From the NCBI GenBank assembly GCA_947500135.1, contig CANMQX010000004.1:411442-475441 (forward strand): a stretch of DNA of 64,000 bases, in the 5' to 3' direction. This DNA is from an uncultured Rhodobacteraceae bacterium (GTDB lineage: Bacteria > Pseudomonadota > Alphaproteobacteria > Rhodobacterales > Rhodobacteraceae). Shown here one piece after another: positions 2,499 to 63,882 of the stretch. Position numbers and translations under genes: made by a program. Within the stretch, counting starts at the first letter, position 1. Each line of letters opens with the position of its first letter. The notes beneath the pieces were generated by a model. It had not been told where the DNA came from and searched no databases. It saw nothing but the letters and a program-made list of their open reading frames with translations.

Positions 2499-2527
2499 TT
2501 GATTTAATTCCATGATGGAATGAAAAT
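2499..2527 (+). promoter_or_regulatory. Putative sigma70-type promoter with a palindromic operator in its spacer
   Basis: TTGATT (2499-2504), 17 bp, then GAAAAT. The spacer holds the perfect inverted repeat ATTCCAT-G-ATGGAAT (2507-2521). Confidence 0.4.
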
Positions 2528-2553
2528 GATGTGGTCATTTGGAGGGACACATC

Positions 2554-3825
2554 ATGAAATCGATTCGTATTGCTTTGGGGGCAATGGTGCTGGGCGCGGG
2601 TATGGCGCAGGCGCAGGATACGACACTGACATTTATGTCGTGGGACCCCGACCAGCTGGAGGTCGAAAAGGAGGCGATTGCCGCTTTTGAGGCCGCCAAT
2701 CCCGGCGTCACCGTTGAGGCAACCGCCATGCCGCCCAAGGACTACTGGCCGCGTCTGTCAGCGCTTGCCGCGTCCGGGGATTTGCCCGATGTCTTTATGA
2801 TGTCGTCGGGTTTCGTCAAGGAATGGGCGGCGGCTGGCAACCTTAAGGACCTGTCTGGCGTTGTTTCGGACGACCAATTGGCAGGCTACTATGAAGGCGC
2901 CGCATCGGTTGGCGTGATCAACGATCAGCGTGTGGCGTTCCCGCAAAACTGGGTCGCACCGGTCCTGTATTACAATATTGATATGTTCGAGGCCGCAGGG
3001 GTCGAGACCCCGCAGCCGGATTGGACATGGGATGATTTCCTGAATGCTGCCAAGGCGCTGACCATTGATGAGGATGGCGACGGCGATGCCGAAACCTATG
3101 GCATGTCGCTTTATGGTCGTTACGCCCATATCGAACCTTGGGTGTTCCGCAATGGTGGCCGTTACCTGAACGCGGATGAAACGGCGCTGGAACTGAACGA
3201 CGAGGCCGTCAACGCGCTGCAATTCCTGACTGATCTGGTGAATGTCCATGGGGTGGCCCCGCAGCCGCAGGAAATGGAAGGCGTCCGCCAGCAGGATATC
3301 ATGCCGCTGGGCATGGCTGCGATGTGGGTCGATGGGTCCTGGAACATCGCCAATACCCGGTCGATTGTCGGCGATGATTTCCGTTGGGGGATTGCGCAGG
3401 TGCCGCTGGGCCCTGATGCGACGCCGGACAATGCTGCCGCCTATGCTTGGGCGGATATGTTGTCTGTCGGTGCGGGCAGCGATAATCCCGATCTGGCCTG
3501 GGCCTTTATCCAGCATATGGTGGGTGAGGGGCGGCAAGCCTCTGATTTCCTTGGTGGCAAGGTGCCTGCCTATATCGATATTGCCACGTCAGAGGCTTGG
3601 CTGGAGGCCGATCAGATGCCCGCCAATAAGGGTCTTCTTCTCGATATCGGGGCGCAGAATGTCTATACCGGGTTTTCCAAAAACTGGAGCGGGTGGCGCG
3701 GATACGATTCGACCGGATCATCAGGCATGAATGGTGAGTTGGATGAGGTGCTGAACGGGCGCAAGTCACTTGATGATGCCATTGAGGCGCTTGTCATCTA
3801 CGGTAACGATATCCTGTCACGCTAA
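2554..3825 (+). CDS. Carbohydrate ABC transporter (CUT1) extracellular solute-binding protein
   Basis: Signal peptide, LSALAASGDLPDVF and WVDGSW motifs, GGAGG RBS at 2541-2545, permeases downstream. Confidence 0.9.
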   Translation: MKSIRIALGAMVLGAGMAQAQDTTLTFMSWDPDQLEVEKEAIAAFEAANPGVTVEATAMPPKDYWPRLSALAASGDLPDVFMMSSGFVKEWAAAGNLKDLSGVVSDDQLAGYYEGAASVGVINDQRVAFPQNWVAPVLYYNIDMFEAAGVETPQPDWTWDDFLNAAKALTIDEDGDGDAETYGMSLYGRYAHIEPWVFRNGGRYLNADETALELNDEAVNALQFLTDLVNVHGVAPQPQEMEGVRQQDIMPLGMAAMWVDGSWNIANTRSIVGDDFRWGIAQVPLGPDATPDNAAAYAWADMLSVGAGSDNPDLAWAFIQHMVGEGRQASDFLGGKVPAYIDIATSEAWLEADQMPANKGLLLDIGAQNVYTGFSKNWSGWRGYDSTGSSGMNGELDEVLNGRKSLDDAIEALVIYGNDILSR

Positions 3826-52778: not shown

Positions 52779-54041
52779 TTACTGATAGATGCGCTGACGT
52801 GTCTCTTCCAGACGCGCCAGGATGTCTTCCAGATTGTCCGGGAACACCATGAACTCTTGCAGGCCTTCCATACCAACCGATGCCATCTCAGCCGAGAAGT
52901 CACGGTCAAAGAACTGCATGATGCCGCCATTTGCATTGCTCGACAGCATCTCAAAGCCCTGCTCCAGGAACTTGTCGTTGTCGATGGATGCATTGGCATT
53001 CACAGGCAGCTGACCCAGCGCTTCACCGCCGTTGATCTCGGTCTGAACCTCAGCCGATGTCACAAAACGCAGGAATTCCTTCGCGGCGTCCATGTTCTGC
53101 GCACCCGATGCGATATGGAACGTATCGGTGGGCGCGTCTTCTGCATAATCAACATCAGCATTGATGACGGGGAATTGGTAGAAGTCCAACTGATCGTCAG
53201 TCAAGCCACCATCACGCATCGCGGCAACCGCAAAGTTACCCATCAGGTAAGATGCCGCTTCGCCATTCAGCATGAAGGGCAAGGCTTCCTGCCAGCTGAA
53301 GTTCTGGTGATCATCGATAAAGGCACCCATATCGATCAGCTGGCGCCAGTTGGCGAATGTCTGACGGACGCGATCATCTGTCCACTCAACCTCGCCACGG
53401 GCCAGCGCGATGTGGAAATCATAGCCGTTGGTGCGCGAGTTGATGTAGTCGAACCAGCCGCCGGCGGTCCACAGGAACTTTGTGCCGATGGTGTAGCACT
53501 TCACGCCATTGTCCAGCAGTGTCTGGCAATTGGCGATTTCTTCTTCCCAGTTGGAAGGCTCTGACAGACCATATTGGTCAAAGATGTCTTTGCGGTAGTA
53601 AACGCCCCACTGGTAGTAGGTATAAGGCACGCCCCACTGTTTGTCGTCCAGGGTCATCGCACCTTTTGTCGATGCAAGCGCTTCAAACTCAGGCTCTGCC
53701 CAAAGGTCAGAGATATCGGCAAACAGGCCAGCATCCACATAAGGACGCATCCGGTTCGCAGCATACCAGTTCACCACGTCGGGTGGGTTTGCGCCCAGCG
53801 CGTTACGGATCTGGGTTTTCCAGGCCTCGCGGTCAACGATTGTCAGGTCGATCTCCAGCTCGGGGTGCAACGCACCGAAATCTTCGACCAGACCTTCCAT
53901 CACAGCACGGGGCGCCGGGTTTGACATGTCCGAGATGATCTTGAGTTCGCCAGAGAGCGCGTGCCCGTCAGCGAAAGCGGATGATGCTGTCACGCCAGCA
54001 GCAACCAACGTCGCAAGCGACGTCTTGAGAATGGAATGCAT
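52779..54041 (-). CDS. Carbohydrate ABC transporter solute-binding protein (galactoside uptake)
   Basis: Signal peptide, DREAWKTQIRN, GVPYTYYQWG, QFFDRD. GGGAGG RBS before 54041. Confidence 0.9.
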   Translation of the reverse strand: MHSILKTSLATLVAAGVTASSAFADGHALSGELKIISDMSNPAPRAVMEGLVEDFGALHPELEIDLTIVDREAWKTQIRNALGANPPDVVNWYAANRMRPYVDAGLFADISDLWAEPEFEALASTKGAMTLDDKQWGVPYTYYQWGVYYRKDIFDQYGLSEPSNWEEEIANCQTLLDNGVKCYTIGTKFLWTAGGWFDYINSRTNGYDFHIALARGEVEWTDDRVRQTFANWRQLIDMGAFIDDHQNFSWQEALPFMLNGEAASYLMGNFAVAAMRDGGLTDDQLDFYQFPVINADVDYAEDAPTDTFHIASGAQNMDAAKEFLRFVTSAEVQTEINGGEALGQLPVNANASIDNDKFLEQGFEMLSSNANGGIMQFFDRDFSAEMASVGMEGLQEFMVFPDNLEDILARLEETRQRIYQ

Positions 54042-54084
54042 GGTGTCCTCCCAGTATGCTTCCTTCATGAAAACCTTGTTCCAT

Positions 54085-54107
54085 TATTTGAAACTTGGTT
54101 TTGGATA
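54085..54107. promoter_or_regulatory. Possible IclR/KdgR-like operator
   Basis: TATTTGAAAC-TTG-GTTTTGGATA, a partial palindrome resembling GAAAC-N3-GTTTC, in the divergent promoter region. Confidence 0.3.
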
Positions 54108-54204
54108 TTGATACTAAACCGCGACTCGGCTAGCCTTGTCAACAGTCCAAGGCTGCACCGATGAGGAGATTGGTGTCAAAACCCGCGATGGACAGGGAGG
54201 AAAC

Positions 54205-55008
54205 ATGGGACATGTGACCGGTGACGGCACAGTCGGTAAAGCACTCGCCGTGCTGGATCAGGTGGCCGCATTCGGACGCCCGGTGCGGTTCAGCGAATTG
54301 CTTGCCCAGTCGGATTTCCCCAAACCCACGCTTTACCGTTTTGTGCAGACACTGACCAATCAGCAGATGCTGGCCTATGACCCTGACAGGCAAACCTATG
54401 CGCCCGGCGTCAGGCTGGTGCGGCTGGCCCATGCGGCCTGGGAACAATCGACCCTGGCCCCGGTGGCGCGGCCACATGTGGATGCGCTTAGCAAGGCCGT
54501 TGGCGAAACGGTGCATCTGGCGCAGCTTGATAATGCGCAGGTGCTTTACATTGATAAACGCAACGCGGCCAATCCTGTGCAAATGTACAGTCAGGCGGGC
54601 AAGGTCGGCCCGGCCTATTGCACCGGCGTGGGCAAGGTCATGCTGGCCTTTCTGGATGATGCAGCGACCGAAAAAGTGATTGCCCAGCAGTCCTTTCACG
54701 TCTTTACCGAATACACGCTGGCAGACGCAGATGCGCTGCGCCATGAACTCGAAGAAATCCGCGCCCATGGCTACGGGTTCGACCGGGAAGAACATGAACC
54801 GGGGATCATCTGTATCGCCATGCCGATCCTGTCCGAAGGCGGGCGGGTCCTGGGGGCGCTTTCGGTGACCAGCACGACAAATCGCACCAACCTTGCAGGG
54901 CTGGAGGCGTATGAGCCTGTCCTGCGTGAAACGGCTGCAAAAATCGCAAGGGATGCCCAGAATTGGAGCTTCCCGGATTACGAAACAAAAGAAGCAACGG
55001 GGATATAA
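54205..55008 (+). CDS. IclR family transcriptional regulator
   Basis: N-terminal HTH (PKPTLYRFVQTL), ETVHLA, YCTGVGK, FDREEHEPGIICIA. Confidence 0.92.
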   Translation: MGHVTGDGTVGKALAVLDQVAAFGRPVRFSELLAQSDFPKPTLYRFVQTLTNQQMLAYDPDRQTYAPGVRLVRLAHAAWEQSTLAPVARPHVDALSKAVGETVHLAQLDNAQVLYIDKRNAANPVQMYSQAGKVGPAYCTGVGKVMLAFLDDAATEKVIAQQSFHVFTEYTLADADALRHELEEIRAHGYGFDREEHEPGIICIAMPILSEGGRVLGALSVTSTTNRTNLAGLEAYEPVLRETAAKIARDAQNWSFPDYETKEATGI

Positions 55009-55011
55009 GCC

Positions 55012-56073
55012 ATGTCAGGTGTTACGCTGAACAAAGTGATCAAGCGCTACGGCGATGTGCAGGTCATCCACGGGATTGATCTGGAAATCAACGATGGCGA
55101 GTTCTGCGTCTTCGTGGGGCCGTCAGGTTGCGGCAAATCTACGCTGCTGCGGATGGTCGCAGGGCTTGAGGAGACCACTGACGGTCAGGTCAATATCGGC
55201 ACCCGTGATGTGACCCGCATGGACCCGTCCGAACGGGGTGTGGCCATGGTGTTCCAGACCTACGCGCTTTATCCGCATATGACGGTGAAGGATAATATGG
55301 GGTTTGGCCTGAAAATGAACGGGCACCCCAAGGCAGAGATTGAAAAGAAAGTCGCCGAAGCGACCCGGATCCTGAAACTGGAAGACTATCTGGATCGCAA
55401 ACCCTCTGCCCTGTCAGGCGGGCAGCGGCAGCGGGTCTCTATCGGGCGGGCCATTGTCCGCGGCCCCGAGGTATTTTTGTTTGACGAACCACTGTCGAAC
55501 CTCGACGCGGAATTGCGGGTCGAGATGCGCGTCGAAATTGCGCGCCTGCACAAAGAAATCGGCGCAACGATGATCTATGTGACCCATGATCAGGTCGAAG
55601 CGATGACGCTGGCTGACAAGATCGTCGTGCTGCGTCTGGGCAATATCGAACAGGTTGGCGCGCCGATGGACCTTTATCGTGATCCCGACAACAAATTCGT
55701 GGCGGGCTTCATCGGATCGCCCGCGATGAACTTTGTGGATGGGGTCGCCAATGGCGGCAATATCAGCGCGCCGGGGCTGGGTGCCAGTTTCGACGGGCTG
55801 ATCAGCACAGCCTATAACGGTAAGGCGGTCAGCGTGGGCGCACGCCCTGAACACATCACCATTGATCCCAATGGCGATACGCATGTTGTCGAAATGACCG
55901 AAAGCCTAGGCGGGGTGTCCTTTGCCTATCTGGCTAGCGATACCGGCGAACGCGTCATCGTGGAAGAACGGGGCGATGAAAGGTCTGCCGAAGGGGCGAA
56001 AGTGGGTATTCACATCGACGCCTCGCGCATCTATCTCTTCGACGCAGAAACAGAAGCGCGCATTCGCAGCTAG
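55012..56073 (+). CDS. Sugar ABC transporter ATP-binding protein (probable ATPase of the galactoside transporter)
   Basis: [27 protein letters not shown]. Confidence 0.94.
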   Translation: MSGVTLNKVIKRYGDVQVIHGIDLEINDGEFCVFVGPSGCGKSTLLRMVAGLEETTDGQVNIGTRDVTRMDPSERGVAMVFQTYALYPHMTVKDNMGFGLKMNGHPKAEIEKKVAEATRILKLEDYLDRKPSALSGGQRQRVSIGRAIVRGPEVFLFDEPLSNLDAELRVEMRVEIARLHKEIGATMIYVTHDQVEAMTLADKIVVLRLGNIEQVGAPMDLYRDPDNKFVAGFIGSPAMNFVDGVANGGNISAPGLGASFDGLISTAYNGKAVSVGARPEHITIDPNGDTHVVEMTESLGGVSFAYLASDTGERVIVEERGDERSAEGAKVGIHIDASRIYLFDAETEARIRS

Positions 56074-56074
56074 A

Positions 56075-56128
56075 GCGCCAGAATTTTTTAAAAATTCTGA
56101 GTAAAATTCTTTGAAAGAATTTTGGCGC
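56075..56128. repeat. AT-rich twin-hairpin element, copy 2
   Basis: CAGAATTTTT-T-AAAAATTCTG, then AAAATTCTTT-G-AAAGAATTTT, bounded by GCGCCA...TGGCGC. Confidence 0.7.
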
Positions 56129-56156
56129 AGGCCGCACCGGCGCATCATAAAAGGAA

Positions 56157-57374
56157 GTGCCGGTGACATTGCAAGCTGATGATATTCACGCCGCCTATGC
56201 GGCGATCAGATCGGCCACGATCCGCACGCCGACTGTGCCTGCCACCCGCTTGTCGCATCATCTTGGGATCGACCTTTACCTCAAGCTGGAAAACCTCCAG
56301 CACACCAATGCCTTCAAGGCGCGGGGCGCGCTGGCCAAGTTGTTGACGCTGTCGGATGAGGCCCGTGATCATGGTGTCATCGCCTGTAGTGCGGGCAATC
56401 ATGCACAAGGTGTCGCCTTTCACGCAACACGTCTGGGCATCCCATCCACCATCATCATGCCCGAGGGCACACCGTTCAACAAAATCCAGCGCACCAGCGA
56501 TCTGGGCGCCGAAGTTGTCATTCACGGGCAAGGCTTTGACGACAGTGTGCAATTCACCCTTGATCTGGCGGCAGAGCGGGGGATGACCTTTATCCACCCG
56601 TTTGATGACCCTCTGGTGGCTGCCGGGCAAGGCACTGTCGCGCTGGAGATGCTGGAACAGCAACCTGATCTTGATTGCATCGTGATCCCCGTCGGCGGTG
56701 GCGGGCTGATCGCGGGCATGGCGGTTGCGGCCAAATCCGTGAAACCGGGGATCGAGCTTATCGGCGCACAGGCCCATATCTTTGACGCGGCCAAGGCGCA
56801 TTTTGACGACGCTGCCCCCAATTTTGCCGGGGCAACACTGGCCGAGGGGATTGCCGTCCGCAAACCTGCGCCCGCCAATCTGGATATCATCAGAAAGCTG
56901 GTGGACCGCCTAGATAGTGCGACCGAAGCCGAAATTGAGCAGGCGGTTTTTGATCTGCTATCCTACGAGAAACTTGTCGCCGAGGGGGCGGCAGGTGCGG
57001 GGCTGGCGATCATCAAGAAACATCTTGACCAGTTTAAGGGCAAAAAGATCGGGCTGGTGATCTGCGGCGGCAATATCGACTCGCGCCTGCTATCAACGCT
57101 GATTGTACGCGGTTTGATGCGGGACGGGCGGATCACCCGGCTTGTGTTCGAGATTGACGATACACCCGGTCAGCTATCCACGATCTCGGGCATCATTGGC
57201 GATGCCGGGGCCAATGTCATCGAAGTGATCCACCAGCGGATGATGCAAAGCGTGTCGCTGAAACAGGCCGAGTTGGAAATCGTGATCGAGGCGCGTGATC
57301 AGGCCCATGTGGATAGCATTCTGGCCGTGCTGCGTGACGCTGGGCTGAAAGTCAGGGTGCCGCAGGATCTGTAA
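56157..57374 (+). CDS. Threonine ammonia-lyase (PLP) with C-terminal ACT domain. Start may be GTG 56163.
   Basis: KLENLQ.T.AFKARGA, SAGNHAQG, HPFDD, VPVGGGGLI, CGGNID. Confidence 0.9.
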   Translation: MPVTLQADDIHAAYAAIRSATIRTPTVPATRLSHHLGIDLYLKLENLQHTNAFKARGALAKLLTLSDEARDHGVIACSAGNHAQGVAFHATRLGIPSTIIMPEGTPFNKIQRTSDLGAEVVIHGQGFDDSVQFTLDLAAERGMTFIHPFDDPLVAAGQGTVALEMLEQQPDLDCIVIPVGGGGLIAGMAVAAKSVKPGIELIGAQAHIFDAAKAHFDDAAPNFAGATLAEGIAVRKPAPANLDIIRKLVDRLDSATEAEIEQAVFDLLSYEKLVAEGAAGAGLAIIKKHLDQFKGKKIGLVICGGNIDSRLLSTLIVRGLMRDGRITRLVFEIDDTPGQLSTISGIIGDAGANVIEVIHQRMMQSVSLKQAELEIVIEARDQAHVDSILAVLRDAGLKVRVPQDL

Positions 57375-57389
57375 ACGACAGGGAGGGAC

Positions 57390-57450
57390 CCCGGGTCAGG
57401 CCCGGGGCGTGTGTTTCACTGCTGCACGTCCCGGACTTGATCCGGGACCT
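57390..57450. repeat. Second doublet of the CCCGGRCTTGAYCCGGG repeat, outward orientation, between convergent genes
   Basis: CCCGGGTCAGGCCCGGGGCG and CGTCCCGGACTTGATCCGGGACCT. Confidence 0.75.
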
Positions 57451-58322
57451 CAGCGTTTCCCGTAATAAAGCCCGACAACGTGTTCGGCCTGTGCAAAGAA
57501 CAGCCAGCGCAGGGCCAGCACGCCCGCGATATGGCTGATCACGGCAAGCGCTGCGATCAGATGGTTCGACGCTAAAAGTAGCAGCACAACCGGCAGCACA
57601 AAGGCCAGCCCAATCGTGATGATCCGCAATTGGTCAGCATGTTTGCGGCCGACCACATGGATGAATTCGCGCATCAGGTAATTTGTGCCTGTATGCGGCG
57701 GCTCAAACGCGCGGACCTTGCCGATATGACCCAGCCCCGTTGCGCTTTCCATATCAGTGCCAGCTTCCACAAAACGCCGGTCGCCGGTGCCCCATGCAAA
57801 TATCTGCAGAACGCCGCCAACGATCAGCAGAACCGCTGCAATCTTGATTTGACCTGCCAGCAATGCGCCACCGCTAAGCGACAAGATCAGATACATCGCC
57901 GGGGTCGTCCAATGCCGCCAGCGTGGCACGGTTTTCATCTGGGCATAGATCATCGATGTGGTGAACACGACACCAAGTGATGCCAATCCGCCAACCACTC
58001 CAAACACACCCAGCCGGGTCCCGGCAAAAACCAACCCGGCCCCATAGATTGCCATGGTGATCAGAGCGAATACTGCGCAAATCCCTTCACGGCTGAGCCA
58101 GCTTGTCTTCCACTGGCTGAACGCCTTGATTGCACGTTCCGGATGGCCAAGGTGAAAGGTCGAGGCGATCAGCCCGCCAACGGCAAAAAGATAGGCGATG
58201 ACAAACCAGATGAACGCGGCCCAACCTGTGGGCACAAGGACACCCATGCCAAGCCAGAACAAAAGACCAAAGCCAAGGCCCGAAAACGTATTGAAAATGA
58301 TAACACTCGGTGCGGGATGCAT
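57450..58322 (-). CDS. soeC: Sulfite dehydrogenase membrane anchor (DmsC/NrfD-like)
   Basis: MHPAPS.IIF, HLGHPERA.KAFSQWKTSWLSREG, RWLFFAQAEHVV.LYYG. TAATG overlap with soeB. Confidence 0.85.
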   Translation of the reverse strand: MHPAPSVIIFNTFSGLGFGLLFWLGMGVLVPTGWAAFIWFVIAYLFAVGGLIASTFHLGHPERAIKAFSQWKTSWLSREGICAVFALITMAIYGAGLVFAGTRLGVFGVVGGLASLGVVFTTSMIYAQMKTVPRWRHWTTPAMYLILSLSGGALLAGQIKIAAVLLIVGGVLQIFAWGTGDRRFVEAGTDMESATGLGHIGKVRAFEPPHTGTNYLMREFIHVVGRKHADQLRIITIGLAFVLPVVLLLLASNHLIAALAVISHIAGVLALRWLFFAQAEHVVGLYYGKR

Positions 58323-59083
58323 TATTTTGGTCCTCCGGGCAGGGCCGACAGTGCTTTGTCCAGCCAATGGGCAAAACCGGTCCCGTCTTGCGCGACGGGT
58401 TCCAGATAAGGGGCCAGAATGTCAAACTCCGGTTCCACATCCTTGGGGCGCGGCGGAAGGTATTTGTTCACGGGCTTGGTGCCTTGCTCGGGCATCAGAT
58501 CAAAACCGCCGCGTTCTGCCACTAGTTTGGATACATCGCTGGTCGCATCGCCCAGATCGCCGAAATGCCGGGCCCCGGCGGGGCAGGTGCGCACGCAGGC
58601 GGGTTGGCGGTCTTCTTCGGGCAGGTTTTCATTGTAGATTCGATCCACGCAAAGGGTGCATTTTTTCATCACCCCTTCATTGGCGTCCAGTTCACGCGCA
58701 CCGTAAGGGCAGGCCCATGCGCAGAGCCCGCAACCAATACAGTCACTTTCATTGACCAGCACGATGCCATCCTCGGCCCGTTTGTAGCTGGCACCCGTCG
58801 GGCAGACGGTCACGCAAGGGGCGTCTTCGCAATGCAGACAGGATTTTGGGAAATGGATCAGCTGGGCGGCACCTTGATCGGGCTGCACCTCGTAGGAATG
58901 CACCCGATTGAGGAACGTGCCAGAGGCAGCACCCGAATAGGCGTTCTGGTCGGATAGCGGAGCGCCGTAGTTTTCGGTGTTCCAGCCTTTGCAGGCCACC
59001 ACGCAGGCATGGCAGCCCACGCAGGTATCCAGGTCAATGACCAGCCCCAGTTTCTTGGCCGACGGCGGTGGCAATTGGGTCAT
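58322..59083 (-). CDS. soeB: Sulfite dehydrogenase Fe-S subunit
   Basis: DLDTCVGCHAC, CLHCEDAPCV, CIGCGLC, KKCTLC, PACVRTCP. Confidence 0.88.
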   Translation of the reverse strand: MTQLPPPSAKKLGLVIDLDTCVGCHACVVACKGWNTENYGAPLSDQNAYSGAASGTFLNRVHSYEVQPDQGAAQLIHFPKSCLHCEDAPCVTVCPTGASYKRAEDGIVLVNESDCIGCGLCAWACPYGARELDANEGVMKKCTLCVDRIYNENLPEEDRQPACVRTCPAGARHFGDLGDATSDVSKLVAERGGFDLMPEQGTKPVNKYLPPRPKDVEPEFDILAPYLEPVAQDGTGFAHWLDKALSALPGGPK

Positions 59084-59259
59084 AGGGTGGCCCTTTCTTG
59101 AAACGCCGGAGCCTCCGGCGGGAGTATTTTTGGCAAAATGATGGATGCAGGTTGGGCTGATGCCGCGCGCTTGTCCCATGTGGCGACATACCAGACAAAG
59201 CTGCCAATTGTCAGGACAAGGAAACCGGCAATCAGCAGAAGAACCTGGCCGTTACTCAT
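59080..59259 (-). CDS. Small single-TM protein (59 aa), absent from the ORF track, between soeA and soeB
   Basis: MSNGQVLLLIAGFLVLTIGSFVWYVATWDKR...; ATGA overlap with the soeA stop and ATGA overlap with the soeB start. Confidence 0.7.
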   Translation of the reverse strand: MSNGQVLLLIAGFLVLTIGSFVWYVATWDKRAASAQPASIILPKILPPEAPAFQERATL

Positions 59260-62081
59260 GATCCCACCTTCCAGTCCAGATCACGCGGCCCCTTGCCAAC
59301 AGGTGACTTGATCGCAGGCATCGCCGGTTGTGCCTCATTCGGCACGGCGGATTTCTCGATTTTCACGCGCAGATCAAACCACGCAGCCTGTCCGGTGATC
59401 GGATCGGAATTGGCCCAACGCAGTCCGTCGCCTTTGGGCGGCAGTAATTCGTGGATCAAATGGTTCAGCAAGAAGCCCTTGGTCGCCTCGCTCGCGTCAT
59501 CATCCAGCGCCCAGGCCCCTTTGCGCTTGCCAATCGCGTTCCATGTCCAGATCGTGTTTTCGTTCAGGCTGGCCTGATGGGCGACGGGCACCACGATGGA
59601 CCCATGCGCCGATGTGACCTTGGCCCAATCACCTTCGGCAAATCCGTTCGCCTCCCAGATCTTGGTCGGGACATAAAGCGGGTTATGTCCGTGGATCTGG
59701 CGCAGCCAGGCATTCTGCGTGCCCCATGAATGATACATCGCCATCGGGCGTTGGGTCAGGGCGTGAACCGGATATTCATCGGTATCAACATGGCTGTTTT
59801 CAAACGGGGCATACCAGATCGGCAGCGGATCCATGGTGCGTTTGATCTGGTCGCGCAGATGGTCGGGGGGTTGGCGGGTGCCGATCCCTTCGGCGGCGGC
59901 CTGAAACTTGCGCAGCGGTTCGACATACAGTTGGAAAATATAGGGCTGTTCTACGTCATAGAACCCCATCTTGACCGCCCAATCCTGATACTCTTGGCTG
60001 AACGGTTTATAGAAAGCCGCGTTTTCCGGGACATGTTCCAACCAGAAACCGCCATTGTCGATATAGTTCTGCAACTGGTCAGGGTTCACATCACCACGGC
60101 CTTTGCCATCACCATCCGCGCCCCGGAAACCGGCCAGCGGACCAACACCGGGGCGGCGAATGTGGTTGGTGATATAGTCAGCGTAATCGGCGTATTTCTG
60201 GGTGCCATCGTCGTTCACAAACCCCGGCAGCTTCAGCATCGCGCCCAATTCACACAGGACAGACTGGAAACCGCGCACATCGCGGTCCGGCTCCACCACC
60301 GGCCAGCGGATTGCGTCGGCAACGCCATCCGCTTCGCAAATCGGACGGTCGAGCAGGCTAATGCAGTCATGCCGCTCCAGATAGGTCGTGTCCGGCAGGA
60401 TCAGGTCGGCATATGCGACCATTTCAGATGAATAAGCATCGGAATAGATGATATGCGGGATCACGTAGTCGCCGTTTTCATCCTTATCCGTCAACATTTT
60501 ATGGACGCCGCCCACATTCATCGACGAATTCCACGACATGTTCGCCATATACATGAACAGCGTGTCGATCTTATAGGGTACCCCCGCATGGGCATTGGAA
60601 ATCACCATATGCATCAGCCCGTGGGCGGACATTGGATTTTCCCAGCTATAGGCCTTGTCGATGCGGGTGGGGTTGCCGTCATCATCGATCAGCAGGTCCT
60701 CTGGACCATGGGTATAGCCCAGATGCGGACCATCCAATGCGGCTCCCGGTGTGACCTTGCCATGCGGTTTGGGATGGGCGGTGGCAGGCTTGGGGTAGGG
60801 TGGTTTGAAACGCATGCCGCCGGGCACCTCAACCGACCCAAGGATGATCTGTAACACATGCAAGGCGCGGCAGGTCTGAAACCCATTGGAATGCGCCGAA
60901 ATCCCGCGCATCGAATGAAAGGACACAGGACGCCCCACCATCTTGGCATGCTTCTTGCCCCGAAAATCGGTCCAAGGGCGGTCCAGCTCAATCGCCTCGT
61001 CAAAGGCGACGCGGGCCAGATCAGCCGCAATCGCGCGGATGCGTGTCGCCGGGATACCGCAGCTTTCGGCAACGGTTTCTGGTGCGTATTCATCCAACAG
61101 ATAGCGATCGGCCATCAGGTGAAATACGGGACGATGGGTCACACCAGCATCGCGGTAGGTCGCGGACAGGTCAGGTTCGACGCCTTTGCCATTCCACGGG
61201 GCCAACTGCCCGGTATTGCGGTCGATGACCTGCGGTTGGCCATCTGCATCGCGTAGGAACAACCCATATTGATCCGAATTCGGGTCTTCGTTCACCAGGA
61301 CCGAGGCATTGGTAAACCGCCTCAGATAGTCCAGATCGACCTTACCCGCCTTCATCAGGCAATGGACCATCGCCAGAATAAACTGGCCATCCGTGCCAGG
61401 GGTAATCCCCACCCAATCATCGGCGACGGCATTGTAACCGGTGCGGATCGGGTTCACCCCGATCATCCGCGCGCCACGTTTCTTTAGCTTGCCGATGCCG
61501 ATCTTGATCGGGTTACTGTCATGATCCTCGGCGACGCCAAACAGCATGAACAGCTTTGTGCGGTCCCAATCGGGCTGGCCAAACTCCCAGAACGCACCGC
61601 CCATCGTATAGATGCCTGCTGCGGCCATATTGACCGAACAGAACCCGCCATGGGCAGCATAGTTCGGGGTGCCAAACCCCTGCGCCCAGAAACTGGTAAA
61701 GGATTGCGACTGATCGCGCCCGGTAAAGAATGCAAGCTTCTCCGGATGCTTCTCGCGCACCGGTTTCAGCCACTCCACCGCCTGTTTCAGCGCAGCTTCC
61801 CACGAAACCTCGACAAACTCGCCAGACCCACGCTCGCCCACGCGCATCAATGGGGCGCGCAGGCGCGATGGCGCGTTATGCTGCATGATACCAGCCGAAC
61901 CCTTGGCGCAAAGCACACCCTGATTGACCGGATGATCCTTGTTGCCCTCGATATAGGCGACCTTGCCACCCTTCATATGTACATTGATGCCGCAGCGGCA
62001 GGCGCACATGTAACAGGTCGTCTTGCGGACCTCGTCGGACACCTTTGGCGATGTATCAAGCTTTGGCTGATCAAGGGACAT
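59256..62081 (-). CDS. soeA: Cytoplasmic sulfite:quinone dehydrogenase molybdopterin subunit
   Basis: KTTCYMCACRCG, HGGFCSVN, MRGISAHSNGFQT, no Tat leader, DSNPITGQ-like ANSDPITGQAAWFD C-terminus, sulfonate-cluster context. Confidence 0.85.
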   Translation of the reverse strand: MSLDQPKLDTSPKVSDEVRKTTCYMCACRCGINVHMKGGKVAYIEGNKDHPVNQGVLCAKGSAGIMQHNAPSRLRAPLMRVGERGSGEFVEVSWEAALKQAVEWLKPVREKHPEKLAFFTGRDQSQSFTSFWAQGFGTPNYAAHGGFCSVNMAAAGIYTMGGAFWEFGQPDWDRTKLFMLFGVAEDHDSNPIKIGIGKLKKRGARMIGVNPIRTGYNAVADDWVGITPGTDGQFILAMVHCLMKAGKVDLDYLRRFTNASVLVNEDPNSDQYGLFLRDADGQPQVIDRNTGQLAPWNGKGVEPDLSATYRDAGVTHRPVFHLMADRYLLDEYAPETVAESCGIPATRIRAIAADLARVAFDEAIELDRPWTDFRGKKHAKMVGRPVSFHSMRGISAHSNGFQTCRALHVLQIILGSVEVPGGMRFKPPYPKPATAHPKPHGKVTPGAALDGPHLGYTHGPEDLLIDDDGNPTRIDKAYSWENPMSAHGLMHMVISNAHAGVPYKIDTLFMYMANMSWNSSMNVGGVHKMLTDKDENGDYVIPHIIYSDAYSSEMVAYADLILPDTTYLERHDCISLLDRPICEADGVADAIRWPVVEPDRDVRGFQSVLCELGAMLKLPGFVNDDGTQKYADYADYITNHIRRPGVGPLAGFRGADGDGKGRGDVNPDQLQNYIDNGGFWLEHVPENAAFYKPFSQEYQDWAVKMGFYDVEQPYIFQLYVEPLRKFQAAAEGIGTRQPPDHLRDQIKRTMDPLPIWYAPFENSHVDTDEYPVHALTQRPMAMYHSWGTQNAWLRQIHGHNPLYVPTKIWEANGFAEGDWAKVTSAHGSIVVPVAHQASLNENTIWTWNAIGKRKGAWALDDDASEATKGFLLNHLIHELLPPKGDGLRWANSDPITGQAAWFDLRVKIEKSAVPNEAQPAMPAIKSPVGKGPRDLDWKVGS

Positions 62082-62104: not shown

Positions 62105-63121
62105 TCAGATGAGGAAGTAGACCCCGGATAGGATGACAGTTGCAATAAAAATGGTTTGCGCCACGATCAGGGCGATGGCAGCGCCCCCCACGGCAAGGAC
62201 TTTCTTGAGGTTTGTTTTCATGCCAACGGCGGCGATGGCCGTCAAAAGCAGCCAGCGGGATGCCTCGGACAGGAAATCAGCTATGGCGGATGGGATCAGC
62301 CCAAGCGAATTCAGGGTGGCCAGCACCAGAAAACCCACAACAAAGGCGGGGATGATCGGGGGGCGTTCGCCGCCATCATCCGGCGTGGCAAACCGGCGGA
62401 TCACCAGCGACGCGATGATCACCACCGGGGCCAGCAAGGACACCCGGATCAGTTTGACCAATGTGGCCGTGTCGCCAACGCTTTCGGACACTGAAAAACC
62501 GGCACCGACCACCTGCGCCACATCATGGATTGTGCCGCCCAGGAAAACACCGGCGGCAAGGTCGGGTAGGTCCAGCAGATTAACGATCACCGGATAGGCG
62601 ATCATCGCGATTGTGGACAGTACGGTCACACCCATAACGGTGAATAGCAGACGCTGTTCTGACCGTTCATCCTTGGGCAGAATCGCCGCAATCGCCATGG
62701 CCGCTGATGCGCCGCAAATCGCCACTGATCCGGCCGTCAACAAGGAAAACCGCCATTTTGCGCCAAAGAAACGGCCGACCAGCAAGCCAAAACCGATGGT
62801 CAGCCCGACCGCACCAACGATCAGCATCACAAGCGGCAGACCCAGTTGCGCAGTCAGCTCCAGACTGATCCGCACGCCCAGTAGGGCGATACCGATCCGC
62901 AACAGGGTGCGCGCGGAAAAGCCGATACCTTCCACGGTTTTGCCTTCCTCGCCCAGAAAGGCCAGCGCGATGCCCAGCAACAGCGCCAACAGCATCGCGG
63001 GGGTCGCATAATGTTCGGCCAGCCATTGCGCGGTGATCGCTGTCATCGCGGCAACAACCACGCCCGGGAACAAGGTCTTGGCGCGGGCCGAGATTGCTTG
63101 AGGTTGCAATAATGCGATCAT
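62105..63121 (-). CDS. YeiH/TauZ family putative sulfate/sulfonate exporter
   Basis: LLRIGIALLG, AICGASAA, HDVAQVV, VKLIRV. About 10 TM segments. Confidence 0.85.
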   Translation of the reverse strand: MIALLQPQAISARAKTLFPGVVVAAMTAITAQWLAEHYATPAMLLALLLGIALAFLGEEGKTVEGIGFSARTLLRIGIALLGVRISLELTAQLGLPLVMLIVGAVGLTIGFGLLVGRFFGAKWRFSLLTAGSVAICGASAAMAIAAILPKDERSEQRLLFTVMGVTVLSTIAMIAYPVIVNLLDLPDLAAGVFLGGTIHDVAQVVGAGFSVSESVGDTATLVKLIRVSLLAPVVIIASLVIRRFATPDDGGERPPIIPAFVVGFLVLATLNSLGLIPSAIADFLSEASRWLLLTAIAAVGMKTNLKKVLAVGGAAIALIVAQTIFIATVILSGVYFLI

Positions 63122-63882
63122 GCAACCTGTGTCCGGATGATGCTTGCCATGGCCAACGCGCATAGCAGTGACAGACAAAGCGGCCGATAATATGTGGCGA
63201 AACGGGGCGTGAACAGCCATTGGCCAACAAACACACCCAGTGCGGTCGGCACGGCCAGCGCGATACCACGTGCAGCACCGGTCTGATCCATGACGCCAAA
63301 CCAAAGGAAGGTGATCATGGATGTCAGTGCGCCAAGAAACAGGAATAGGACAAGGGCGGCACGCATCTTGGCCGCGGGCGCGTCCTGCGACAGGACGTAT
63401 AGGGCGATGACCATACCGCCCACATGGGCCAACCCGGTGACGATGCCTGCGGCAAAGCCTGACCCGTAAAGCCCCGGTTTTGTGGCCAGAAATGGTAGCC
63501 TGATCTTGGCGAGTTGGGTGACGGCCAGCAGGATGATGATGGTCAGCACCACCATCTTGCTGACCTCAACAGGCAGCGATGTGGTCAACCACAGCCCGAA
63601 TGGCACACCAATTGTTGAGCCGATAACAAGCCCCAGAACAACGCCACGATCCGCCTCGCGCCAGCCGCCCCGTGCCATCATCAGTGACGCCATCATTTCC
63701 AGCCACCAGCAGATCGGGATCAGTTGTACGGGTGGCAGGATCAGCACAGCACTGGCCATCACCACGGCTGATAGGGCAAAGCCCGAAAAACCGCGCACGA
63801 TACCTGCAACCACCACGATCACCGTCAGGATCGCAAATTCCTGTCCGGTCAAGTCGGTGAGGGTCAGCAGGTCGCCAAACAT
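63118..63882 (-). CDS. TauE/SafE family sulfite exporter
   Basis: AGIVRGFSGFA motif and 7-8 TM segments. ATGA overlap with the YeiH gene. Confidence 0.85.
   Translation of the reverse strand: MFGDLLTLTDLTGQEFAILTVIVVVAGIVRGFSGFALSAVVMASAVLILPPVQLIPICWWLEMMASLMMARGGWREADRGVVLGLVIGSTIGVPFGLWLTTSLPVEVSKMVVLTIIILLAVTQLAKIRLPFLATKPGLYGSGFAAGIVTGLAHVGGMVIALYVLSQDAPAAKMRAALVLFLFLGALTSMITFLWFGVMDQTGAARGIALAVPTALGVFVGQWLFTPRFATYYRPLCLSLLCALAMASIIRTQVA

Follow-up and report, generated by a model that had tools for sequence, protein, structure and literature searches.

The spacer between soeA and soeB in the 64-kb window (the whole stretch of DNA analysed here) holds a 59-codon open reading frame that, on comparative sequence evidence, is a genuine, selected, protein-coding gene. 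Its product would be a lineage-specific micro-protein, translationally coupled to its neighbours through ATGA overlaps and functional in its N-terminal ~38 residues. With middling confidence, the likeliest role of this product is to serve the Soe complex as a small accessory partner in the membrane. By analogy with other enzymes, either a Soe subunit or an assembly factor is plausible.

The soe operon and the open reading frame within it

Many sulfur oxidisers use SoeABC as their main cytoplasmic enzyme for oxidising sulfite, and roseobacters also dispose through it of the sulfite that taurine and other organosulfonates yield. The following features surround the soeA-soeB junction of the window.

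57450..58322, minus strand: soeC, NrfD/DmsC-type membrane anchor of 290 aa with a DmsC domain; its start and the soeB stop share 1 nt
58322..59083, minus strand: soeB, four-cluster Fe-S subunit of 253 aa with Fer4_11; its start is the ATG at 59083
59080..59259, minus strand: small ORF, 59 aa plus stop; product predicted to be a single-pass membrane micro-protein; its Rhodobacterales family is unnamed (from sequence, family, dN/dS and AF2 helix)
59173..59259, minus strand: conserved core of the small ORF, residues 1-29, with the start overlapping the soeA stop, the hydrophobic helix and a contiguous GSFVWYVATWD
59148..59172, minus strand: variable linker (KRAASAQP...); most family members have an acidic A-x-x-E-x-P-[IV] at the same place
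59104..59147, minus strand: E1 repeat copy, element CATCCATCATTTTGCCAAAAATACTCCCGCCGGAGGCTCCGGCG, translated as (A)SIILPKILPPEAPA, with the palindrome CGCCGGAGGCTCCGGCG at 59104-59120
59080..59103, minus strand: last codons (FQERATL) and stop of the small ORF, with a Shine-Dalgarno-like GAAAGGG at 59091-59097 for soeB and the ATGA stop/start overlap
59256..62081, minus strand: soeA, Mo-bisPGD/molybdopterin catalytic subunit of 941 aa with an N-terminal 4Fe-4S motif and no Tat signal
63118..63882, minus strand: tauE-type sulfite exporter gene, upstream of soeA

The three large soe genes fit SoeABC, and sulfite:quinone oxidoreductase activity is predicted for their products. The soeA product has the Pfam domains Molybdop_Fe4S4, Molybdopterin and Molydop_binding; its N-terminus (MSLDQPKLDTSPK...) has neither an RR motif nor a twin-arginine signal, so SoeA would face the cytoplasm. 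Proteins 80-83% identical to the window Fe-S subunit carry the JGI name 'sulfite dehydrogenase (quinone) subunit SoeB'. Relatives share the gene order pta-ackA-tauE-soeA-small gene-soeB-soeC, which the window matches from tauE to soeC. The setting resembles the taurine locus of Ruegeria pomeroyi: the window soe genes lie beside tauE, and those of relatives lie beside pta-ackA or xsc. The window also has the same three-subunit architecture as the SoeABC described from R. pomeroyi, Allochromatium vinosum and Aquifex aeolicus (PMC6335251, PMC8076601, PMC4334477). As described, the enzyme is a heterotrimer that has neither an extra subunit nor a fourth gene, and its SoeC is an inverted 8-TMH NrfD-like protein (PMC6335251, PMC8076601), whereas a fourth conserved cistron stands between soeA and soeB in the window and in about half of the related species sampled. 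No solved SoeABC structure was found.

The spacer proper spans 59084-59255 (172 nt) and is filled by the small ORF, whose translation (59080..59259, minus strand) is MSNGQVLLLIAGFLVLTIGSFVWYVATWDKRAASAQPASIILPKILPPEAPAFQERATL* (59 codons). Its ATG (59259-59257) overlaps the soeA TGA (59258-59256) and its TGA (59082-59080) overlaps the soeB ATG (59083-59081), each junction reading ATGA. A sequence-only reading of this DNA had claimed that a minus-strand ORF exactly fills the 172-bp gap with ATGA at both ends, and the sequence confirms it. An open frame of this length in a GC-rich spacer is not significant alone, an alternative sense frame being open in 12/26 comparable spacers. What raises the ORF above chance is comparative evidence (family, selection, synteny and coupling), not its openness.

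A conserved gene for a predicted membrane micro-protein

The small protein has 20 close homologues. Its family, searched for in 1.84 billion representatives, forms 81 clusters at 50% identity, all of 41-109 aa, and 322 clusters at 90% identity. Members are typically 45-65 aa long, and all named ones are Rhodobacterales "hypothetical protein" entries. Sequence searches of Pfam, NCBIfam and the PDB give no significant match to a known family; weak matches of a few members (E around 0.002) are taken as matches of transmembrane composition. An Rfam search of the spacer gives no match, and no near-identical RNA runs were found for the window or for Yoonia vestfoldensis.

The family consensus is M-T-x-x-R-T-L-L-L-I-x-A-F-x-A-L-x-x-GSFIWFVATWD followed by E-x-P, the window copy reading GSFVWYVATWD at the central motif. 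Among 82 representatives, I10 is invariant and G19, F21, W28 and D29 are at least 90% conserved. The TM/ATWD segment picked out by the sequence-only reading is exactly the part that the family conserves. That reading had staked itself in advance on the segment being conserved in other soe operons; it is, and the gene occurs in 35/78 species loci.

Substitution patterns point the same way. Across 38 distinct sequences, codons 1-31 give a pN/pS of 0.39 and a median dN/dS of 0.22, while the other two sense frames over the same codons give dN/dS-type ratios of 1.2-1.6; the dN/dS comparison proposed beforehand thus comes out in favour of a coding frame. Synonymous sites are near saturation across lineages (pS 0.65), and third-position entropy over codons 1-31 is 1.30 against 0.71 and 0.56 at positions 1 and 2, about twice as high. 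The substitution record indicates that codons 1-31 are under protein-level purifying selection. Constraint at the protein level is limited to residues 1 to ~38.

AF2 predicts one helix, over residues 3-34; residues 1-30 reach pLDDT 91-98, and confidence in the tail is low. The protein has no signal-peptidase-like site. Family means of flank charge are +1.0 net at the N flank and -1.5 over the 12-residue C flank, the N flank being more positive than the C flank in 186/201 members, and an N-in/C-out topology is predicted for most of the family from this charge bias. The window copy is atypical in charge (N flank 0, C flank +1), a point counted against an accessory-partner role. Conservation confined to one side of the helix was not found: the helical moment is not significant (p = 0.23) and the G19-D29 block is conserved on all faces.

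Distribution and linkage to soeB

The small gene is present in 35/78 species loci selected by SoeB. Its carriers form a subset of the marine Rhodobacterales, for example Yoonia, Loktanella, Octadecabacter and relatives; Yoonia vestfoldensis, Loktanella salsilacus and Roseobacter sp. CCS2 are culturable carriers. When loci are looked up by the small protein instead, the gene lies directly upstream of soeB with 4-nt overlaps in 8/8 independent cases and never apart from it. In 13 loci another gene, encoding a LysE, DUF6882, Imm10-like or 273-aa membrane protein, stands between soeA and the small gene, yet the small gene still abuts soeB. Because this contact is kept despite the insertions, the small gene is linked to soeB and not to soeA. 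The genes upstream of it vary (tauE, xsc, citrate synthase, LysE, DUF6882), and the only fixed neighbours are soeB and soeC.

The sampled tree implies at least about 8 losses of the gene. In 14 loci from many genera, including Ruegeria, soeA and soeB overlap directly and the small gene is absent. The soe genes of R. pomeroyi have contiguous locus tags (SPO3557-3559), with no small gene annotated (PMC4334477). Repeated loss, direct soeA/soeB overlaps and the contiguous tags of R. pomeroyi indicate that Soe works without the small protein. The soeABC locus tags of A. vinosum are presumably contiguous too. The small gene, repeatedly lost and not annotated in R. pomeroyi, is best described as a lineage-specific accessory and not as a universal fourth subunit. 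Of the fourth Soe component proposed from the sequence, the conserved cistron strictly linked to soeB stands; its generality does not, given its presence in 35/78 loci and its repeated loss.

A tail made of a dispersed repeat

The C-terminal "SIILPKILPPEAP", judged by its recurrence at the DNA level, comes from translating E1, a repeat dispersed through intergenic regions of Rhodobacterales. E1 is found at unrelated intergenic sites on plasmids of Parasedimentitalea and Dinoroseobacter; three plasmids carry the palindromic repeat, at sites downstream of gcvT, next to an FAD-binding gene and in the gap separating rfbA from an epimerase gene. A sister element, E2, likewise occurs at unrelated intergenic sites in Rhodobacterales replicons. 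Each element contains a GC-rich hairpin, and each is conserved as DNA whatever the frame in which it is read. E1 and E2 resemble REP-like repeats in being palindromic and recurrent at unrelated intergenic sites, but E1 in the window lies inside a translated ORF. The 64-kb window has a single E1 copy; copies at other places are almost absent from the fetched loci, which total about 650 kb and include no whole genome.

The E1 codons CTC CCG CCG GAG show zero synonymous variation, and the sister repeat is read in all three frames in family tails. 'ILPPEAP' was rejected as a protein motif on these two grounds and because the same DNA lies on unrelated plasmids. The 7-bp hairpin of E1 is the only structured feature that stands out in the spacer RNA; the whole spacer folds no better than shuffled sequences (z = 0.67), and the E1 region scores as a terminator on the antisense strand.

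After the core, family tails run from about 8 to >40 residues and are variable, repeat-derived and read in different frames. A ...GAAAGGGCCAC..ATGA string recurs across loci of both tail types, and the last codons of the small ORF likely hold the soeB ribosome-binding site. The 59-aa protein first proposed is borne out over residues 1 to ~38, which are constrained; its second half is dispersed repeat and soeB ribosome-binding region.

Translational coupling and alternative explanations

ATGA is conserved at the small-gene start in 39/39 loci and at its end, on the soeB start, in 35/39, in keeping with the coupling to both soeA and soeB that had been proposed. Spacers that lack the TM peptide share much of this architecture. 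A complete ORF running from an ATG on the soeA stop to a TGA on the soeB ATG is present in 17/26 of them, and spacer length is 1 mod 3 in 18/26 (binomial p = 2e-4; 16/22 distinct lengths). The bridge-ORF peptides there are unrelated and repeat-derived. The length bias lends indirect support to the idea that soeB translation would depend on translation of the relay. Ribosome relay into soeB appears, from these spacers, to be selected as well, and the spacer is 'filled exactly' partly because of selection for relay and not for the small peptide. Since unrelated bridge ORFs keep the coupling architecture, the architecture alone is no argument for a subunit. The small ORF is like these ATGA-coupled bridging ORFs in its overlaps on both sides, in the frame relation it shares with unrelated peptides and in the 1 mod 3 bias, but it carries a peptide under purifying selection and is more than a spacer-reading frame.

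The bridge ORFs invite the reading that only relay is selected: translation of the spacer would deliver ribosomes to soeB, and the peptide would be a by-product conserved only for harmlessness, such as clean insertion and degradation. The free variation of TM-family tails, with one repeat read in all three frames, agrees with this. Relay alone, however, would not preserve a motif of 11 residues, nor an invariant Ile, across lineages with a pS of 0.65 and a dN/dS of 0.22. Nor does it explain why the peptide stays beside soeB even where an inserted upstream gene could do the relaying; LysE and hydrolase genes themselves serve as the relay into soeB in L039 and L083. Two further loci, L023 and L024, keep the peptide with its stop 96-98 nt before soeB, where coupling is lost. 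These observations leave an explanation by relay alone rather unlikely.

A conserved membrane peptide might also act outside the Soe complex, in sulfite/sulfate export or in envelope stress, and sit on the soe transcript for co-regulation. Exporters are indeed nearby: tauE in the window and in relatives, and LysE just upstream of the small gene in several lineages. The gene is dispensable in many genera, and no co-variation with SoeA, SoeB or SoeC is seen; a crude screen for columns of the SoeA C-terminus, SoeB and SoeC that are conserved in carriers and differ in four or more of eight independent lineages lacking the gene yields one weak column each, no signal. The variable upstream genes, with soeB/soeC as the sole fixed neighbour, and the 8/8 look-ups in which the gene is never found elsewhere nevertheless argue against such a role, which we consider improbable.

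The position of the small gene immediately before soeB and soeC, its ATGA ribosome hand-over and its long hydrophobic N-terminal helix without a signal-peptidase-like site would also suit a co-translational membrane tether. The nascent helix would recruit the signal recognition particle and bring the soeB-soeC mRNA to the membrane, SoeB would be made near SoeC, and the released peptide would be idle. That the gene keeps to the soeB side of inserted genes agrees with this scheme. Hydrophobicity suffices for targeting, however, and the conservation of GSFIWFVATWD and E-x-P exceeds that need; SoeC, encoded right after soeB, would target the message itself. A tether is decidedly unlikely on these grounds.

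Arrest peptides of the SecM, MifM and VemP type have a conserved C-terminal arrest motif. A regulatory peptide of this kind, sensing membrane insertion and gating soeB translation, would fit a small ORF that begins with a TM segment and lies directly upstream of a candidate regulated gene, but the expected C-terminal stalling motif is absent and the C-terminal part is the least conserved, which makes this explanation very hard to credit. A chance open frame, or part of a longer SoeB (285 aa, ATG at 59179), is suggested by an ORF listing that overlaps the small ORF with that frame and by the commonness of open frames in such spacers, but is already refuted by the comparisons, since the coding signature is specific to the small-ORF frame, the MT(Q/T)LP N-terminus of SoeB is fixed in all loci, including spacerless ones where soeB directly overlaps the soeA stop, and the 32-aa extension is not conserved.

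A candidate accessory partner of the Soe complex

For the preferred reading, an accessory membrane partner of Soe, the following sequence of events is proposed. Ribosomes ending soeA, or another upstream gene, would restart at the small-gene ATGA, and those ending the small gene would restart at the soeB ATGA, so that the micro-protein is made together with SoeB and SoeC. The N-terminal ~38 residues would be the functional part and form one transmembrane helix, with the short basic N-terminus toward the cytoplasm in most of the family and GSFIWFVATWD and the acidic E-x-P segment at the periplasmic end. In the membrane the micro-protein may dock on the 8-helix anchor SoeC and support its stability, its assembly or the handling of quinone, much as peptides of the CydX, CcoQ or NapE type support other respiratory enzymes. 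The C-terminal tail would have no protein-level function and would matter only by keeping the frame open to the soeB start. The peptide does not replace a lost SoeC helix, SoeC being 289-295 aa both with and without the small gene. The unchanged SoeC length, the screen of Soe columns and the spread of conservation over all helix faces weigh against an accessory partner, as do the repeated losses. Fusion of the peptide with SoeB was likewise rejected: the one long SoeB homologue (P0085, 312 aa) owes its length to reading through at the C-terminus into soeC.

Other respiratory enzymes have small single-helix accessory subunits: CydX in cytochrome bd, CcoQ in cbb3 oxidase and NapE in the periplasmic nitrate reductase. 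Like them, the small protein is under 100 aa, has one predicted TM helix, belongs to the operon of an oxidoreductase that is membrane-bound and quinone-linked, tends to escape annotation and is lineage-restricted; binding to the integral membrane subunit would be expected by analogy. The small protein nonetheless lacks a sequence relationship to them (no Pfam, NCBIfam or PDB match), so the three are analogues only, and its gene is also a link in an ATGA-coupled cistron chain. Soe differs too, in its cytoplasm-facing catalytic subunits and inverted NrfD-type anchor (PMC8076601).

A bolder version joins relay and subunit, and is put forward tentatively, with more doubt than belief. The soeA-soeB junction would be an obligate relay site, at which inserts must keep the ATGA-to-ATGA frame, and the TM micro-protein, with no homologue elsewhere and confined to this site, would have arisen de novo from the relay frame and been recruited as a lineage-specific fourth membrane subunit, 'SoeD', docked on the inverted NrfD-type anchor SoeC.

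Implications

The soeA-soeB junction is a clean case in which selection for translational coupling can be seen by comparison: repeats and whole cargo genes can insert there, yet the frame usually stays open and keeps its overlaps. Close genera that differ in having the small gene provide a natural experiment. Yoonia, Loktanella, Octadecabacter and relatives are a large and ecologically important group, and a conserved fourth cistron, if true, would change which subunits should be expressed and purified from them. It would also add one more overlooked single-helix partner of respiratory enzymes.

The small gene and its operon

The small ORF (window 59080-59259, minus strand; 59 codons; product MSNGQVLLLIAGFLVLTIGSFVWYVATWDKRAASAQPASIILPKILPPEAPAFQERATL) lies in the 172-nt soeA-soeB spacer. 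Its ATG has three bases in common with the TGA of the upstream 941-aa gene and its TGA overlaps the ATG of the downstream 253-aa gene, each junction reading ATGA. The window sequence bears out what the sequence-only reading had described, an ORF filling the gap with ATGA at both ends; that reading had proposed a fourth Soe subunit or assembly factor. Judged by their sequence features, the flanking genes have SoeABC architecture, and for proteins sharing 80-83% identity with the Fe-S subunit one source gives the name "sulfite dehydrogenase (quinone) subunit SoeB".

Genes of the soe neighbourhood in the window
soeA: 941 aa, Mo-bisPGD subunit, N-terminal Fe-S motif, no twin-arginine signal
soeB: 253 aa, four-cluster ferredoxin-type subunit
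soeC: DmsC/NrfD-type anchor
56157-57374, plus strand: PLP-dependent enzyme with ACT domain, downstream of soeC, opposite strand
55012-56073, plus strand: MalK-type ABC ATPase, downstream of soeC, opposite strand
54136-55008, plus strand: IclR regulator, downstream of soeC, opposite strand
52779-54068, minus strand: solute-binding protein, downstream of soeC

A TauE-type sulfite exporter gene lies upstream of soeA in the window, and relatives show the order pta-ackA-tauE-soeA-small-soeB-soeC. The R. pomeroyi soe locus resembles this order, with pta (SPO3560) adjoining soeABC (SPO3557-3559) (PMC4334477). The genomes nearest to the window are uncultured Rhodobacteraceae, Cognatiyoonia, Yoonia and Loktanella. 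The ABC/IclR/solute-binding protein block beside soeC is also kept in relatives (whole neighbourhood, window 52779-57374). An in-frame ATG (59177-59179, minus strand) stands 96 nt 5' of the real soeB start, and a predicted 285-aa SoeB overlaps the small ORF; this longer SoeB is rejected, as the extension is unconserved and the SoeB N-terminus is MT(Q/T)LP in all loci.

Evidence for a protein-coding gene

An open frame over a GC-rich 172-nt spacer is unremarkable alone (among 26 comparable spacers, 12 show an open alternative sense frame), and the comparative evidence decides. Homologues of 50-67 aa numbered 20 in a word-indexed search; profile searching turned up 81 clusters (41-109 aa in every case) among 1.84 billion cluster representatives and, in a second run, 322 clusters at 90% identity. 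Family members with a named source are all Rhodobacterales "hypothetical protein" entries, with Yoonia, Loktanella, Octadecabacter, Flavimaricola, Roseibaca, Roseovarius, Roseobacter sp. CCS2 and HLUCCA08 as named carriers; the family is already in databases under that label in several genomes. Searches of Pfam, NCBIfam, PDB and Rfam gave no match, tests for membership placed the protein in no named family, the family-search matches included no fusion proteins, the family has no family model, and a literature search found no paper mentioning it.

Selection was assessed over codons 1-31 in 38 distinct genomic copies. Entropy at third codon positions is 1.30 bits vs 0.71 at first and 0.56 at second positions, and mean pN/pS is 0.39, while ratios in the two remaining sense frames are 1.2-1.6. 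The peptide is kept while synonymous change is close to saturation (pS 0.65). The dN/dS ratio, proposed earlier as a check on the ORF, has a median of 0.22 over these codons, indicating purifying selection. Taken together, the family comparison and the codon statistics mark the small ORF as a real protein-coding gene under purifying selection.

A conserved membrane helix

A conservation profile of 82 representatives (<50% identity to each other) gives the core consensus M-T-x-x-R-T-L-L-L-I-x-A-F-x-A-L-x-x-G-S-F-I-W-F-V-A-T-W-D, followed by a weaker E-x-P-[IV]. I10 is invariant, L7, G19, F21, W28 and D29 are each at least 90% conserved, and G19 to D29 form a contiguous conserved block. The TM/ATWD segment, on whose conservation the earlier proposal had been staked, is therefore the conserved core of these representatives. 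AlphaFold2, run on the family alignment, predicts one helix (residues 3-34) with pLDDT 91-98 for the first 30 residues and a low-confidence tail. Mean net charge across the family is +1.0 in the N-terminal flank and -1.5 in the 12 residues past the helix, and 186 of 201 members have the more positive flank at the N-terminal end; the window copy is atypical (N flank 0, C flank +1). By the positive-inside rule, this family bias predicts an N-in/C-out topology. Conservation along the helix revealed no one-sided face.

A tail encoded by a dispersed repeat

Past residue ~38 the family has no conservation at the protein level (lengths 41-109 aa). The window's tail motif is missing from 137 of 201 members, and the commonest lengths are 49-50 aa. 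In the nearest relatives (97% SoeB identity) the tail has diverged to LSPKAIPTSERAT, the core differing at 1-3 residues. In loci L023 3291-3407 and L024 3292-3405 (Yoonia vestfoldensis DSM 16212) a TAA closes the ORF at 37-38 residues, leaving 96-98 nt to soeB, so only the core is encoded and the ORF no longer overlaps the soeB start. As read from these sequences, this natural truncation is evidence for a dispensable tail.

The window tail "SIILPKILPPEAP" is encoded by CATCCATCATTTTGCCAAAAATACTCCCGCCGGAGGCTCCGGCG (59147-59104, minus strand), which contains the palindrome CGCCGGAGGCTCCGGCG, and 14 loci share CTCCCGCCGGAGGC without a single difference. The tail codons CTC CCG CCG GAG have third-position entropies of 0, 0, 0.37 and 0.37, essentially no synonymous variation, against a mean of 1.10 for TM codons in the same genomes. 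This repeat, E1, also occurs at unrelated intergenic sites of Rhodobacterales plasmids, including downstream of gcvT (Parasedimentitalea) and between rfbA and an epimerase gene (Dinoroseobacter). A second repeat, E2 (AAAATATCCCGGGGTCTGGGGCAGAGCCCCAG), fills the soeA-soeB spacer of Sulfitobacter, Ruegeria, Leisingera and Ascidiaceihabitans, is likewise found on unrelated plasmids, and is read by family tails in all three frames (PGVWGSAP, 3 members; PGSGA, 5; RGLGQ, 3). Tail conservation therefore reflects nucleotide-level identity of a dispersed repeat, and the tail is rejected as a protein motif.

Copies of the repeats
Window 59104-59147, minus strand
Fetched locus L085, about 1490-1540
Fetched locus L087, about 1495-1530
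Fetched locus L086, about 1500-1540

E1 (...CCAAAAATACTCCCGCCGGAGGCTCC) is related to E2, and each contains a GC-rich hairpin. The antisense of E1 scores as an intrinsic terminator (59104-59120, plus strand, then GGAGTATTTT). The last codons of the ORF (…ERAT-) recur with both tail types and coincide with GAAAGGG, the probable ribosome-binding site of soeB, 9-15 nt ahead of its ATG.

Placement beside soeB

Eight look-ups begun from family members, which took in the most divergent members that could be looked up, all place the small gene directly 5' of soeB with 4-nt overlaps. A one-genome-per-species scan with SoeB yielded 80 Rhodobacterales loci; both soeA and soeB were located in 78, and 35 of these have the small gene. 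The coupling noted in the window is kept across relatives: an ATGA start overlaps the upstream stop in 39/39 carrier loci, and an ATGA end falls on the soeB start in 35/39. The small gene is separated from soeA by a further complete gene in 11 scanned loci and two look-ups; the inserted gene encodes a LysE-type translocator, one of two forms of DUF6882, an Imm10-like protein or a 273-aa membrane protein. The small gene still abuts soeB in every one of these, so the part of the operon to which it is tied is soeB-soeC and not soeA.

Insertions recur at the soeA-soeB junction, a hot spot whose cargo differs by lineage and also includes an alpha/beta hydrolase. Most insertions begin on an ATG overlapping the soeA stop, with chains of up to five overlap-coupled cistrons.

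Inserted genes at the junction in fetched soe loci
About 2500-3500 in each: L007, L008, L009, L010, L015, L025, L029, L037, L039, L041, L059, L062, L083
L088, 3878-4504
L091, 3989-4504

On one metagenomic contig (L089 1617-4440), which carries family member P0309 (NCBI name from Roseibaca calidilacus), soeA is split into four called ORFs, reflecting either a pseudogene or assembly frameshifts. The 45-aa small ORF and soeB are intact there, and soeC is called as two ORFs (234 and 70 aa).

Probable coupling into soeB

Spacers shorter than 300 nt that lack the TM gene (26 loci, L031-L084; spacers ending at ~3501) keep an ATG on the soeA stop in 23 cases. Their length is 1 mod 3 in 18/26 (binomial p = 2e-4; 16/22 distinct lengths), and 17/26 hold a complete ORF from this ATG to a TGA on the soeB ATG, encoding unrelated, largely repeat-derived peptides. 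The 5' ATG is probably a relic of the ancestral soeB start, and the 3' ATGA is a consequence of Thr as the second SoeB codon; ancestry does not account for the length bias. The pattern suggests selection for termination-reinitiation coupling into soeB, which would explain why the window spacer is filled exactly. In such a relay, ribosomes ending soeA would restart at the small ORF, and those ending the small ORF would restart at soeB. The relay would be one of two layers in the ORF, the other being its peptide. Relay selection by itself is no argument for a functional peptide. A relay alone, as the peptides of TM-less spacers would allow, is nonetheless an improbable account of the small gene, whose first ~38 residues make up a membrane helix bearing a specific motif under strong conservation.

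Distribution and loss

In a crude, midpoint-rooted neighbour-joining tree (SoeA C-terminus, SoeB and SoeC concatenated), carriers are spread over the deepest branches: HLUCCA08, Octadecabacter, Yoonia/Loktanella, Thalassobium, Planktotalea and Roseovarius MAGs. Fitch parsimony on this tree needs 8 changes, with the small gene already present at the midpoint root, which implies repeated loss. In L034 and L042 the helix is gone and the repeat part kept; in 14 loci, including Ruegeria, Roseobacter, Planktotalea and Marivivens, soeA and soeB overlap directly (ATGA, gap -4). Published accounts describe SoeABC as a heterotrimer and give it no further subunit (PMC6335251; PMC8076601, Table 1), and the R. 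pomeroyi soe genes have contiguous locus tags (PMC4334477). Given this patchy distribution and literature, the small gene is not a general requirement of Soe but a lineage-specific accessory, retained by selection where present.

Possible role

The most economical role for the peptide would be that of an accessory membrane partner of the Soe complex, because it is predicted to be made in step with SoeB and SoeC, and its gene was found nowhere else and stays on the soeB side of insertions. This role, most plausibly through binding the 8-helix anchor SoeC, has about an even chance of being correct. SoeC is believed to be an inverted anchor whose quinone site faces the cytoplasm (PMC8076601). If the N-in/C-out topology holds, the conserved GSFIWFVATWD/E-x-P end would sit on the periplasmic side, remote from SoeB and from the quinone site, which would favour a structural or stabilising role over electron transfer. 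A screen for SoeA, SoeB or SoeC positions tracking small-gene presence found none, and SoeC length is equal with and without the gene.

A membrane peptide working outside the complex, for example with neighbouring exporters such as the TauE-type protein encoded upstream of soeA, is as improbable as a relay alone, the gene's fixed neighbour being soeB. A co-translational membrane tether, which a lone helix encoded just before soeB might provide, is less probable again. An arrest peptide would suit the same position and is very unlikely, being contradicted by the variable C-terminus. Least credible is a chance frame or a longer SoeB, for all the open frames of GC-rich spacers and the upstream in-frame ATG, since frame-specific selection and the fixed SoeB N-terminus contradict it.

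CydX, CcoQ and NapE are tiny single-helix proteins whose genes lie within operons for respiratory enzymes. The small protein, as a putative accessory partner of Soe, is alike in kind, but by sequence it belongs to none of these families. The relay and insertion-hotspot behaviour of the soeA-soeB junction is a further point of interest. The small gene is a real extra member of the soe operon in a bacterial group that matters ecologically; it is lineage-restricted, dispensable elsewhere and putative in function.
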